From: Octopus vulgaris
Lineage: Eukaryota
Length of the DNA stretch: 64,000 nt
Assembly (NCBI GenBank): GCA_951406725.2
Contig: OX597818.1
Span: forward strand, 104,842,001-104,906,000
Direction: 5' to 3'
Position numbers and translations under genes: made by a program. The notes under the pieces are model-generated. The model worked only from the letters and a program-made list of their open reading frames with translations, was not told the DNA's origin and searched no databases. Positions 45,990 to 63,472 of this stretch are shown one piece after another (position 1 is the stretch's first letter; every line of letters begins with the position of its first letter).

Positions 45990-46597
45990 AGGCGACGAGC
46001 TGGCAGAATAGTTAGCACGCCGGTCGAAATGCTTAGCGGTATTTCGTCTGCCGCTACGTTCTGAGTTCAAATTCCGCCGAGGTCGACTTTGATTTCATCC
46101 TTTCGAGGTCGATAATTAAGTACCAGTTACGCACTGGGGTCGATGTAATCGACTTAATCCGTTGTCTGTCCTTGTTTGTCCTCTCTGTGTTTAGCCACTT
46201 GTGGGTAGTAAAGAAATAGGTATTTCGTTTGCCGTTACGTTCTGAACTCAAATTCCACCGAGGTCGACTTTGCCTTTCATCCTTTCGGGGTCGATAAATT
46301 AAGTACCAGTTACGCACTGGGGTCGATGTAATCGACGTAATCCCTTTCTCTGTCCTTGTTTGTCCTCTCTGTGTTTAGCCCCTTGTGGGTAATAAAGAAA
46401 TAAGAATCGTTAGCACGCCAAGCAGGATGTTAGCGGCATTTCGACCGTCTAAATTCAAATACCGCCGGGGTCAACTTTGCTTTCATTCTTCCGGGGTCGT
46501 TAAAATAAGTAACAGATGTGCACTGGGGATGATCAAATTGACTTAGTACCTTCTCCGAAATTTTTGGGCTTGTGCCAAAATTTGAAACCAATATTAT
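45990..46597 (+). mobile_element. SINE-A head-to-tail array: TAGT-tail, then TAAT-tail, then C-tail unit
   Basis: Junctions ..GTAGTAAAGAAATAGGTATTTCG (~46218) and ..GTAATAAAGAAATAAGAATCGTTAGC (~46402). Confidence 0.9.
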
Positions 46598-47939
46598 ATT
46601 TTACATAGTGCAAGCAACAATATTCGGTATAGAACTGAATGTGGTGTGTGCGTGTGTGTGTGTGTGTGTGTGTGTGTGTGTGTGCGCGCGCGCGCGCGTG
46701 TATGTGAATAAATGTATATGCATCTCTTTGTGTTTGTCCTTACATCGCTCGACAGCAGGCACTGGTTTATTTTGGCCTCGTAATCTTGCGGTCCCGCGAA
46801 GTAACCAATAAAATAAGCAACCCAACTTTAAAAACATAAGTACTGGAATCGAATTGTCAAACTAAACTCTACAAGACGGTGCCCCAGCATAGCCGCCCGC
46901 AGTTCAATAACTGGAACTTGCAAACGAGTAAAAAGTAAATAAATGTACTTCGGTTTGCTTTTTCGTTGAATTAGAGCCAAAACAACCACAAATCGAAAGG
47001 AAGTTATGCCTCCTTAAAAAATACATTTTAAAATCACAATTGCACCGAGTGGCATGAACTTTTACATGTCATTTCTATACGCTAAGCCTTCCTTCTAAGA
47101 TAGATTTTTCCTTTTTTTTGTTCCTATTTATCATTTTCTGAAGTATGGTAATGCCAATATAAAGTAGGCTCTTATTCACCAGCATCCTGTCAGTTCCTCA
47201 AGAATTAGGAATAAATATTCATTGAATAAGTACGTGGCATCAGCTATTAATCCTGTCAATAATTTCTATGTCAGCAATAAACCACCTATAATAGCGCTGC
47301 GGATAATCAATTCAGTTCTCCGTATTTTATAGCTTTCTTTATTAGGGTACTTCATTCTGTTGTCATCTATCATGGTACGGCTGACAAGCATTGAAAAGGA
47401 TATCTTATCAAGTACAGATCTGTTCTTGTGCAGCATTGAACTACATCTGGGCCTGGTGTCTTTACAGATTCGTTTTCTTTCGTCCTTGTTTCGTCACTGA
47501 TTTGTCTTATCTTCTCTCTTTTGTTTGTTTCAGATGTTAGATTGCCTCCATGCTGGGGCAACACCTTGGAGTATTATAGTCGATGGTGACATATTAATTC
47601 TTTTAAGCCTGGTACTTACTCTATCGGTCTCTTTCACCAAACCTCTAAGTTACAGAGATATAAACACACCGACACGCCGACACTGATGGTCAAGCGGGGT
47701 GGGGCACAAACACAGACGCAGACACATACACACACACATACATACATATATATATATATATAATAGTTGTATATAAATTATAGAAGAACCACCATGTGGC
47801 AATTCAACAATGATATACTTAAATCATACCATACAAAAAAATCAGATACGATTTAACATTTACCTAAAACTAAATAAAGTACGAAAATAAATAAATAGTA
47901 TATAATTAGTAAATATATATATATGTATGTATGTATATA

Positions 47940-48300
47940 TATAAAGTTAATCCAAACAAGAAAACAAAAAGACAACAACGCGAGGATGTGGAACAAATAA
48001 AGTATTATTGGGCGCTCAGGAAAGAAGGGAAGAAGGAGGGTATGACGTTTCGAGCGGAGCTCTTCGTCGGAAACAAGGAGAAAGAAAGATCCCGAGGTGG
48101 GAGGACAGAGGGGGGAAAATGCAAGTGGTCTTCACGAGGTCACATACTGAAAAGGCGGAAGTGGTAAAAAAGAAGGAACAAGTTTTCAAAAACAGGAGAG
48201 CGGAATCAAAGAAGGAATGGTAAACAAAGGTGTGCGAGATGACAAGGGTGTGTGTGTGAGTGTGTGCGTGTGTGTGTATGTGTGTATATGGTGGGCAAAG
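47940..48300 (-). mobile_element. PLE pseudo-LTR fragment with mutated minimal hammerhead (48040-48074)
   Basis: Minus GUUU CCGACGA A GAGC-UCC-GCUC GAAACGUC AUAC (core U changed to C); homologous to 40450-40615. Confidence 0.65.
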
Positions 48301-48784
48301 GCTAGTTTCAAGCAGCAGTTAGCGAGTCAGGAAGGCAGGTCAAAAACAGGGAGGAATGTGTGTGTGCGTGTATATGTCTCGTGTGTGTGTTTTGTTGTAG
48401 TATGTGTGTGTGTACCTGTGCGTATTTTTGTGTGTATGGCGAGTAACTGTGCTTAACTAAGTGTATGTGTGGGTGTGTGTGTGTGCTTGTATGTGCGTAT
48501 ATGTATAATTGTGTGCATGTATGTATGTGTGCGTGCGTATGTGTGAGCATGTTTTGGTGTGCGTATGTATGTGTGTGTCTGTGCTTATATGTGCTTAAAA
48601 ACTTTCAAGGCAATTTTTCGTTTAGGCGTGCCATTCAAAACTTCGCGCGGCAGGCTGATTGCCCTTGTCTTTTCTAAAAACTTCAAAGTTTTGTTTTAAT
48701 TTGTTGTAACAAAGCTGTGTTTTTTTAGCTTTCTTTTCCAAATGTTCTTCTATACACTTCAAGTGTTAATATAATTGACGTTCA

Positions 48785-60330: not shown

Positions 60331-62329
60331 ATTCAAACCTGAATATTTCTGGATGCTTATATCAGTTTACATAATACATAAAGCATACTTTCCGATATCT
60401 TCAAATTATTTGCATTATTTCAGAAAATATCTCTTAAAATCGACAATACTTTATGCTACAAACCAAACAGTAAAATATCTTCCCTTCATCAGAGGCAAAT
60501 ATTGAATATTAGAGTGAAGATGCAACCCAATATTCTTCAACCCTTGGCATTGAAGTCGCTTCCCTGACAGAAATATTAGAATATCTTTCGTTAAATATAG
60601 AACATACCATACTTGTCTCGCAGTTTCTACTATGTATTGCCCACACACACACACAAAGTCAAACACACACACTCACACGTCTGTGTGTAGGGTGGTGTAT
60701 GTATTTATGTTAAATATAAATTTGTCTAACTTTACATACATAAATATACAAAGAAAGAGAGAAGCGGACAGTAACAGTTTGATGAGTGCCATGCACGAAA
60801 TTCTAGTTCTTTGGGTCACTAAATGTAGCTTTACAACTCTATAATACAATTGTATGTATGCGTGTTTGCCTATATACGCCTATATACGCATGCATATATA
60901 TATATATATATATATATATATATATATATATATATATAGTTACACACATACACATTACATATACTTATATGTATATAGGTAATGTTATATAAATTTTGAT
61001 GCCCTCTTTACTTAATCTTATTAGTTTCTCATATTTTGTTTTACAATTTGCAGTGTTTTTCTTTAGACTGGGTATATGCTGGCTCTGATGTAATTACGAT
61101 CTATAGAGCACTGTATATAGCCTTAGAAACATGTTTTATTGCTAACAAACTCTCGGTTTTGTAATAAAGTCAAACAACCAAGGTGATTAATGTAACTTAT
61201 TGTTGCATAATCTTACTTTATGGATTTTTGTGATTATATATACATATATATGTCTATAAATATATATATATATATATATATACACACATATATATATATA
61301 TATATATATATATATATATATATATATATATATATATATATATATATATAAAAGATTACAATTACATCCCGTCGTCGATAATAAATATCTGGAGAGAGAG
61401 AGAGAGAGAAAGAGAGAATTATATGGAAGGTGTAAGATACAAGTTATGAGGGAGAGACAGATAGAGAAAGAGAGAAAAAGTGAGGGAATTTATTTTAGCA
61501 AAAGCAATTTCAGAGAAGTATTACAAAGTAATATAATTCTAAATAAGTTTATATACACATAATCTTATCCATATATATATATATATATATATATATATAA
61601 ATACGTATGCATACTCTTATTCACACACATGTAATATAATTCTAGATAAGATTTCATATATATATATATATATATATATATATATATATATATATATATA
61701 TATATATATATATATATATATATATAACGAAGTAATAGAATCCTAAATAAGTTAAGATTGCATATACATATTTGTATACATATACATGTTTCATTATATG
61801 CATATATTATATATGTATATTTCTAATGTTATGCATATATGCACAAATACTATATATATATACATACATACATATATATATATATATATATATATATATA
61901 TATATACAGAGAGAGAGAGAGAGAGAGAGAGAGAGAGAGAGAGAGAAACATATATATTATTTGATAAAGAAAAGGCATTTAAATGTTCTTATTTAGAATA
62001 ATATTACTTTGTAACATATATAAAGAACTCGGTAATAACAAGAATGTATATTTGGCAAAGCAATGAATAAAACTTTTGTTGAAATGTATAGTACTTAAGG
62101 AAATGAACCATATAATAATGAGATTAGAAAGATCTTAAAAATATAACGAAATATTTTTCCTGGAAAGCATCTTAGTGAAGAGCTCAATAAAAATAAAGAA
62201 AACATCTACATTTGATATATTTTCTTTCTTTATTTATAATGAAATATAATGAACTAAAACTAATTGACACCCGAAGTCAGAGTGACATGTATGCCTATAT
62301 ATATGTATATATGTTTGTGTGTGTGTTAC

Positions 62330-62610
62330 TGACACTCCGTCGGTTACGACGAAGGTTCCCGCCAGCTCGTGAAACTGACACACAAGTGGATGAGTGCTCT
62401 GCAGGCACGCGTACTCTTAGCGTAGTTCTCAGGGAGGTTCAATAAGACAAGGCTGGCTCTTTGAAAAACAGGCACTACGCATGTTTACCAGACGAGTGGA
62501 CTGCACCAACGTAAAATAATGTGTCTGGCTCAAAGAACAAAATGCATTGCCAAGGATCGAACACGCGATCTTACTATCGTGAACTGAGTATCCTAACCAT
62601 TAAGCCACGC
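62330..62610 (-). mobile_element. Diverged SINE (family C)
   Basis: Homologous to 31725-32043. Confidence 0.7.
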
Positions 62611-62672
62611 TCTTTCACTAAATACACACACGCACACACACACACACACACACACACACACACAAGTTTAAT

Positions 62673-63472
62673 ATTCTTTTCTACAATAGGCACAAGGCCC
62701 GAAATTTTGGTGAAGGGGTCCAGTCGATTAGATCGACCCCAGTACGCAACTAATACTTAATTTATCGACTCCGAAAGGATGAAAGGCAAAGTCGACCTCG
62801 GCGGAATTTGAGCTCAGAACACAAAGACAGTCGAAATACCCATTTCTTTACTACCCACAAGGGACTACACACGGAGAGGACAAACAAGGACAGACAAACG
62901 GATTAAGTCAATTATATCGAACCAATGCGTAACTGGTACTTAATTTATCGACCCGGAAAGAATGGAAAGCAAAGTCGACCTCGGCGGGATTTGAACTCAG
63001 AACGTAACGGCAGACGAAATACGGCTACGCATTTCGCCCGGCGTGCTAACGTTTCTTATTTCTTTATTGCCCACAACGGGCTAAACATACAGGGGACAAA
63101 CAAGGACAGACAAACGGATTAAGTCGATTATATCGACCCCAGTGCGTAACTGGTACTTAATTTATCGACCCCGAAAGGATTAAAAGCAAAGTCGACCTCG
63201 GCGGAATTTGAGCTCAGAACGCAAAGACAGCCGAAATACTTATTTCTTTACTACCCACAAGGGGCTAAACACAGAGAGGACAAACAATTTCAGACAAACG
63301 GATTAAGTCGATTATATCGACACCAGTGCGTAATTGGTACTTAATTTATCGACCCCGAAAGGATGAAAGGCAAAGTCGACCTCGGCGGAATTTGAACTCA
63401 GAACGTAACGGCAGACGAAATACCGCTGAGCATCTCGCCCGGCGCGCTAACGTTTCTGCCAGCTCGCCGCCT
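62673..63472 (-). mobile_element. Four-unit SINE-A array: TAGT, CAAT, TAGT, then C-tail
   Basis: Minus junctions GTAGTAAAGAAATAAGTATTTCG (~63240), GCAATAAAGAAATAAGAAACGTTAGC (~63056) and GTAGTAAAGAAATGGGTATTTCG (~62842). Confidence 0.9.

Follow-up and report, generated by a model that had tools for sequence, protein, structure and literature searches.

Tail variants of an abundant octopus SINE are followed by different target motifs, two of which lie in the SINE's own head

A short interspersed element (SINE) of Octopus vulgaris appears to choose its insertion sites according to the variant of its 3' tail, and one of the favored sites lies in the head of its own relatives, where new copies probably build ordered arrays. 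The element was followed out from a window of 64,000 nucleotides (nt; assembly GCA_951406725.2, contig OX597818.1, positions 104,842,001 to 104,906,000 of the forward strand), in which a first-pass annotation had noticed four such arrays and proposed that two sub-lineages of the SINE, distinguished by their tails, each insert at a motif of their own. All SINE positions given here are numbered on the 234-nt copy at window positions 63240–63473 (minus strand), whose head carries AGAA at position 17 and GGTATTT at position 50. Tails are named by a short variable motif (TAGT, CAAT, TAAT and others, together the A type) or as the C1 and C2 types.

The association of tail with site holds throughout the 2.8 Gb assembly (227 contigs, the window lying on the one designated C5). 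Among 77,568 exact TAGT tails, 22,077 run straight into position 50 of another unit and 208 into position 17, whereas the 22,395 exact CAAT tails lead into position 17 in 1,824 cases and into position 50 in 498, an odds ratio of 389. These genome-wide tail and junction figures are exact-match counts; the reversed patterns that served as controls gave 0 to 2 matches, which rules out chance as the source of the junctions. A tail precedes 22 of the 29 units that start at positions 48–54 and 9 of the 12 that start at 15–20. TAGT tails were found at site 50 in 28 per cent of cases by exact count and in 14/26 cases in an unselected sample of 80 stretches of 10 kb (800 kb), so that the proposed preference for relatives is borne out, and CAAT tails were found at site 17 in 8 per cent by exact count. 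A published yardstick for target specificity, more than 20 per cent of copies flanked by one kind of sequence (PMC4494074), places TAGT above the line and CAAT below it.

That the motif belongs to the target, and not merely to the tail, is seen in insertions into unrelated DNA. Target-site duplications (TSDs) were sought in 111 structures with both head and tail, a set that mixes solo copies with array ends and includes loci selected by similarity (30, one of them the window's own copy) or by pattern (30). Fifty-one had a clear TSD outside microsatellites (median 17 nt); for 59 others either no TSD was seen or the site was a simple repeat, and one nested site was dropped. The clear TSDs, typically about 15–17 nt long, begin two nt past the tail end in 28/51 cases, the others being shifted earlier or later, and this start is modal or joint-modal in all three tail classes. 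It lies 16 nt after the loop of a short tail stem in 199/203 tails (136/139 A, 41/42 C2 and 22/22 C1), and copying therefore seems to begin at a fixed register, the next few bases matching the target. The upstream TSD copy, tallied for in-register TSDs (9 more being left out), starts with GGT in 10/17 insertions with TAGT, TAAT or TACT tails and never with AGA (0/17), a further 5/17 of these TAGT-class sites starting with TA; for CAAT tails it starts with AGA in 4/6 and with GGT in 0/6. C1 and C2 tails met mostly AAT or ATT, and neither GGT nor AGA in 19. Since the motif stands in the upstream copy, a true target preference is indicated and the possibility that the motif is just the end of the tail can be set aside. 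It lies almost wholly downstream of the break and fades with distance, with a weak pyrimidine bias before the break.

The rule is broader and looser than first proposed. Tail-dependent targets are real, but at least four tail classes are present in place of two sub-lineages, with one common rule of a motif for each class and no fixed order of units. TAGT tails strongly prefer the GGTA motif, although 2/26 in the unselected sample are followed by AAGAA, and the claim that tails other than TAGT precede AGAA is sound for CAAT but fails for TAAT tails, which go mostly to the GGTA motif, all three unselected examples being followed by AGG.

A short motif is insufficient to account for the frequency with which SINE heads are hit. 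Intact heads supply 20 of the 1,168 GGTAT sites in the unselected sample and yet received 14 of its 26 TAGT tails, an excess of about 30-fold, and the 5-nt motif alone therefore cannot explain it. On exact genome counts the excess is 17-fold for TAGT and about 10-fold for CAAT at site 17. Against the larger figure it must be said that 20 of 1,168 undercounts decayed heads, and that the true excess is lower, though still large. Junctions at site 50 start with GG in 69/76 cases, whereas only 81/157 intact heads have G at position 50. A common head variant (for example the copy at 21146–21379) alters positions 45 and 50, which turns a G-U pair of a predicted hairpin into G-C and abolishes GGTAT; it has no apparent link with TA-type targets. 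Junctions starting with C number 0/76, against 26/157 heads with C50, and this may be an escape variant.

The SINE has 153 matches in the unselected 800 kb, where it makes up about 2.8 per cent of the bases, and exact A tails number about 100,000 genome-wide. The tails of the 153 are TAGT (26), CAAT (9), other A-type (10), C2 (31), C1 (25) and unrecognized (52). A short stem around a CTTGT loop is common to all classes; folding of the tail stretch was no better than that of shuffled sequences (z from -1.2 to 1.2), and the stem-loop is accepted because it recurs in every tail and not on folding energy. The head, by contrast, is predicted to form a 12-bp hairpin (z -2.7) with site 50 at its loop–stem border. 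No run of four T (T4) occurs in the unit. An A-box-like stretch at about 13–25 and a B-box-like stretch at about 75–87 were read by eye against the Pol III consensus; ARAGORN found no tRNA gene and Rfam gave no tRNA match. Dispersal, short length, high copy number, non-coding nature and TSDs are all as expected of a SINE. The family is probably already named: we take it that an abundant octopus SINE family is called 'Twin', a name that may reflect dimers, in which case the structure may have been noticed before. An expansion of tRNA-Core and tRNA-Deu SINEs and of L1-Tx1 LINEs has been reported for octopuses or coleoids (PMC8967140). The octopus tRNA-derived SINEs OK, OR1 and OR2 likely come from the same kind of genome. 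By eye, the element bears no likeness to the BivaMeta and BivaMD (Meta domain) alignments in one part of the supplement of PMC4824008, three short motifs being absent there, and the accessible text of that paper offered no family assignment. A resemblance to the CORE domain of CORE-SINEs is conceivable.

Its tail likely derives from target-specific long interspersed elements (LINEs) of the L1/Tx1 group, to judge from sequence, because the end of the A tail is shared with local LINEs. The A tail aligns with the 3' end of the truncated window LINE at 4416–5899 above all of 300 shuffles; the scores for two local LINEs were 68 (shuffle maximum 52) and 61 (shuffle maximum 50), and a third LINE 3' end did not rise above shuffles. 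A young LINE family with several intact frames of 1,138 amino acids (L141:106-3522 and L142–L160) has endonuclease, reverse transcriptase and zf-RVT domains, has human L1 ORF2 as its best solved relative (E 2.6e-70), and ends in 12 nt identical to the end of the CAAT tail. This family adjoins (CT)n in 19/19 short 3' stretches (18 by script, one by eye), and other families adjoin (ATCT)n (window 4416, L036, L044 and L064) or (ATT)n (L125 and L023). It is from this microsatellite targeting that we infer the LINEs to be Tx1 rather than L1. The shared tail ends support the link to this group of LINEs that the first-pass annotation implied. No LINE was seen at a GGTAT or AGAA site among the 11 loci with LINE matches, a narrow search; a pattern search for a partner gave two matches, neither confirmed as a LINE. 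The window LINE is a relative of the likely partner and at most a candidate for it.

The four window arrays bear out most of what had been described for them. All 12 junctions were found. GGTATTT or AGTATTT, or else TATTT, stands 2 nt beyond each of the 7 TAGT tails, and 4 of the 5 other tails are followed by AGAA. The fifth (58744) meets a TA-rich run and no TSD was found for it, and for these reasons the AGAAA farther downstream is probably there by chance. A TSD surrounds the whole array in three of the four, that of array 4 being weak, and none is clear for the array at 57562. The terminal C1 unit of array 1 is 73 per cent identical to the young reference. Contigs from four public sequencing runs, compared with 45500–49700, were overwhelmed by repeats; one of them, from organism C (X11 record 1, 42 differences), spans the left flank and the head as far as 46021 and continues with 17 letters that do not match, as might be seen in an old allele that had the C1 unit alone, but it is given no weight as evidence here. 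The anatomy of these arrays does not generalize: of the 17 arrays in the unselected 800 kb, the last tail is of the C type in 11 and of the A type in 4, with none recognized in 2, which contradicts the claim that a C tail always comes last; C2 tails also occur internally (L051 and L093), and a few internal units start near position 66 instead of at one of only two points.

Our best explanation of these observations, to which as a whole we would give about even chances, is that tail variants have motifs of their own, that arrays grow by insertion into older copies, and that pairing of read-through RNA picks the site. The protein of an L1/Tx1-group LINE would bind the tail stem-loop and start copying at a fixed register, on transcripts that run past the tail into the downstream flank of their source, that is, into the source's previous target site; such read-through is likely because the unit lacks a T4 run. 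The site would be chosen by pairing of the read-through RNA with the nicked target. If a source copy itself lay at site 50, its transcripts would end in a long trailer complementary in this way to all relatives, and this would account for hits in excess of those expected from the short motif. Insert and host being homologous, the new strand would usually join onto the host head through homology, most often around positions 20–45, whereby the host remnant would be lost and the array would appear as one head followed by headless units; local duplication or unequal exchange may then add or remove units in some arrays.

Pairing is favored over an endonuclease as the choosing agent because tails that differ by 1–3 nt meet different motifs, because hundreds of tails fall into the cross classes, because the matched bases are found on the downstream side of the break and a T4 run is absent from the unit, and because extra tail heptamers, which suggest re-priming, are present at 4/160 A-tail junctions. 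RNA–target pairing at initiation is documented for L1 (PMC3649969), pairing at priming has been suggested for SART1Bm and R1Bm (PMC7265360), and annealing at 5' junctions is known (PMC4245944). Two considerations weigh on the other side: target choice in Tx1 elements has been put down mainly to the endonuclease (PMC4494074), and the pairing model is a proposal drawn from genomic sequence, neither transcript nor partner LINE having been seen. A stronger form of the idea, advanced more tentatively, is a memory of target sites, in which the enzyme copies from a fixed 16 nt after the stem-loop, the read-through flank acts as guide, and a lineage inherits the target of its source; a single source that landed in the head of a relative would then have become a guide to all relatives, and self-targeting would have run away.

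The most serious competitor, which we regard as unlikely though well short of negligible, gives each tail class a different L1/Tx1-group LINE, whose endonuclease would set the site by recognizing sequence or structure, with the SINE head as the preferred target and other GGTA or AGAA sites as relaxed off-targets. The local LINE families are indeed target-specific, site 50 at the loop border of the predicted hairpin would suit a structure-specific nick, and crocodilian SINEU with Tx1-Mar provides a precedent in which one transposon is targeted at two regions (PMC4494074). The excess of GG at site-50 junctions also fits such an enzyme, but would also be expected from RNA pairing or overwriting. 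The proposal is harder to reconcile with the tails themselves, since the TAGT, TAAT and CAAT 4-mers differ by 1–3 nt and meet different motifs, with the frequency of the cross classes (498 and 208), with a motif that is nearly all downstream of the break and preceded by a weak pyrimidine bias, and with the lack of LINEs at these motifs among the 11 loci mentioned above.

Whether RNA or endonuclease selects the site, we consider it probable that new copies insert into older genomic relatives, a reading suggested by nested TSD cases, older terminal units and partly host-like first heads. Nested insertions, in which a head ending at about 60–75 is followed by a full head, have 51 exact matches genome-wide (control 0). 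Twenty-seven distinct loci of this kind were read, of which 4 have no A tail in range and 18 of the other 23 resume at site 50; in 6/23 (for example L124, L130 and L139) non-consensus bases of the host recur in both TSD copies, one of the six being a subfamily variant. Most junctions have no host remnant, and these need a 5' end joined by homology or another route.

The ages of the units point the same way. In 18/24 pairs the divergence of the terminal C unit exceeds that of the A unit before it (p=0.002), and it does so in 9/13 when unselected loci and the window are taken (p=0.02). Terminal C1 units differ mutually by 0.23, against 0.21 for solo C1 copies, and terminal C2 units by 0.13 (minimum 0.05), distances that rule out a single dimer master and uphold the statement that arrays are not near-identical copies of one. 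A fixed complex (dimeric) SINE family copied from masters is excluded by the variable number and type of units together with these older, mutually distant terminal units. Taken over the whole head, divergence is higher in the first heads of arrays than in solo A copies (73/725 vs 50/795, p=0.023), and the excess is located at positions 17–33 (33/272 vs 14/289, p=0.002, one of 7 intervals; p=0.022 once selected loci are added). The C-type base T21 is present in 7/16 array first heads and 1/17 solo A heads, and positions 34–49 are insert-like; a host-like 17–33 followed by an insert-like 34–49 fits a new strand that joined the host head by homology.

Several observations weigh against insertion into older copies as a full account. 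At 5 of the 23 nested loci the host head does not pick up again at site 50, and full heads are also preceded by partial heads ending mostly near 18–25 (84 matches, many of them tandem) or near 100–118 (37 matches); from these non-resuming loci and other partial-head classes it follows that part of the nested class represents 5' duplications or jumps between templates. Among C2 units the terminal ones are younger than the solo copies (0.071 vs 0.096, p=0.02), the first-head excess is weak without CpG sites (p=0.066), and divergence of first heads is uncorrelated with that of terminal units (rho -0.04, n=17). The two TSD copies are mismatched to a like degree around C-ended arrays (0.080) and around solo A copies (0.082), so that TSD decay was rejected as a clock, and adjacent units share no rare variant at positions 50–70 (0/63 pairs). 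Separately, partial heads that end at about 100–118 in T runs (for example G000:C19:7868893) fit a reverse transcriptase jumping onto prematurely terminated transcripts, and minisatellite-like runs of SINE 5' fragments (units of about 64 nt and of 18 nt) precede a full head at L136, L137 and G000:C2:179262567-179262779.

A rather improbable alternative is that arrays arise in one event, through reverse-transcriptase jumps at position 50 or 17 by microhomology to the tail of another RNA, or as read-through multimers inserted whole. It would account for the single TSD around whole arrays, the partial heads that break off at T runs ahead of a full head, which suggest RNA-to-RNA jumps, the similar TSD decay in arrays and solo A copies, and the equal frequency of the G45/C50 variant in first units and solos (4/16 vs 4/17), but it leaves unexplained why terminal units are older and mutually unrelated, why bases at 17–33 are host-like, why nested copies carry private TSD bases, and why solo copies already obey the same genomic target rule. 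Weaker still, and improbable as the main cause, is the view that junctions were rare and were multiplied chiefly by tandem duplication, unequal exchange or gene conversion at the DNA level, as in SINE-derived satellites (PMC10702118; PMC11481361), because, in spite of junction runs of up to 10 at a spacing of 184–187 nt, rare variants shared by 12/63 adjacent pairs (above permutation) and duplicated units within L031 and L065, most arrays combine just two or three units from different subfamilies and lie at independent loci (17 in 800 kb), 51/63 adjacent pairs share nothing rare, and the tail–motif rule in solo TSDs would go unexplained. Local duplication does add units in some arrays. The two units of the dimers L100:3984-4402 and L036:4727-5075 have rare variants in common over about 100 nt (positions 94–151 and 122–140), as might follow from long duplication, conversion or contraction of a trimer.

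Insertion of Alu in tandem or nested fashion into the A-rich tracts of other Alu copies is a familiar case of a SINE supplying sites for its own family. Those targets are simple A-rich endonuclease sites at the tail and linker, and full TSD structures are left behind, whereas the octopus SINE uses complex motifs in its promoter region. The crocodilian SINEU-3/Tx1-Mar system resembles it in that a SINE prefers targets in another repeat (13–90 per cent of copies), with two hot regions, tandem insertions and an inferred Tx1 partner (PMC4494074). There, however, insertion is into a DNA transposon and a TSD lies sandwiched between the tandem copies, whereas here the SINE's own head is targeted, tail variants go to different sites, and the host remnant is mostly lost. 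SINE multimers in the bivalve S. broughtonii share the arrangement of one complete head, repeated headless units and one outer TSD, but make up about 3 per cent of copies, have inner units that also lack tails, and have been attributed to unequal recombination (PMC11481361); in the octopus about 28 per cent (exact) to half (unselected) of TAGT tails lie at junctions, tails are kept, and ages are mixed. SINE-derived satellites of squamates likewise consist of tandem units from a portion of a SINE, but were explained by DNA-level amplification, with no tail-specific target rule reported in the accessible text (PMC10702118). The snap-velcro behavior of L1 (PMC3649969) and the priming of SART1Bm and R1Bm (PMC7265360) are alike in that the target directly downstream of the nick is matched by a few RNA bases from beyond the end of the element; they differ in involving poly(A) or fixed ribosomal DNA or telomere targets set by the endonuclease, while natural variants of the octopus SINE lead to different motifs, one of them back into the element. 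Our literature search, which was short on subscription papers and on the octopus genome paper and its supplement (these may bear on novelty), turned up no SINE reported to insert into its own head, nor does such a self-targeted structure appear in the accessible parts of PMC12988792, PMC9115989, PMC8967140 and PMC3531059. Target-specific SINEs mobilized by Tx1 elements and headless multimers are thus known, and the use of a SINE's own head as a target with tail-specific sites is suggestive of something new.

With its own promoter region as a major landing site, in tens of thousands of events, the SINE would have made itself a safe haven. Counting and dating of the dominant repeat change accordingly, as dimers are not a subfamily and a head may be a chimera. 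The existence of natural tail variants that differ in target also makes the question of endonuclease versus RNA pairing in non-LTR retrotransposition directly testable, and, if the pairing model is true, an enzyme of fixed register following a changeable RNA trailer would amount to natural RNA-programmable insertion on an L1/Tx1-group enzyme, of interest for gene insertion.

Table 1. SINE copies, their target-site duplications and a LINE in the window
Feature	Window position	Strand	Description
Array 1	45989..46589	+	TAGT unit with full head, 45989-46218; TAAT-tailed headless unit beginning at position 50, 46219-46402; old C1 unit beginning at position 17, 46403-46589
Array 1 TSD	upstream copy 45972..45989; downstream copy 46590-46607	+	2 mismatches in 19
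Array 2	48784..49386	+	TAGT unit with full head, 48784-49016; CAGT-tailed unit beginning at position 50, with a short deletion, 49017-49189; C2 unit beginning at position 17, 49190-49386
Array 2 TSD	48768-48783 and 49387-49402		
Array 3	57562..57952	+	TAGT unit to 57788; C1 unit from position 50, 57789-57952; no clear TSD
Array 4	62676..63473	-	full-head TAGT unit 63473-63241 (reference); CAAT unit from position 50, 63240-63057; TAGT unit from position 17, 63056-62841; C2 unit from position 50, 62840-62676
Solo TAGT copy	21146..21379	+	perfect 10-nt TSD starting GGTAT; inside decayed minus-strand reverse-transcriptase remnant
Solo TAGT copy	24978..25211	-	17-nt TSD starting TATTT
Solo CAAT copy	1779..2011	-	23-nt TSD starting AGA
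Solo CAAT copy	58743..58973	-	followed by TA-rich run; no TSD found
Solo C2-tail copy	9532..9745 (end approximate)	+	TSD present
Truncated L1/Tx1-group LINE	4416..5899	-	5'-truncated; zf-RVT; in (ATCT)n run; 3' end similar to SINE A tail

Other repeats accompany the SINE in the window. The reverse-transcriptase remnant around the solo copy at 21146–21379 is one that we take to be RTE. A second dispersed family, with one module on either side of (TA)n/(CA)n runs, occurs at 59340–59780, 18591–18822, 13966–14183 and 49480–49900, and its central part resembles the body of this SINE. An inverted repeat of 572 nt (32849–33420 and 33479–34050), with arms 99 per cent complementary and 58 nt apart, may be a recent fold-back or an assembly artefact. 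A short frame at 42035–42445 on the minus strand lies within (ATT)n runs and had no Pfam match; its motifs recall what we presume to be the restriction-like endonuclease end of Dong/R4 elements.

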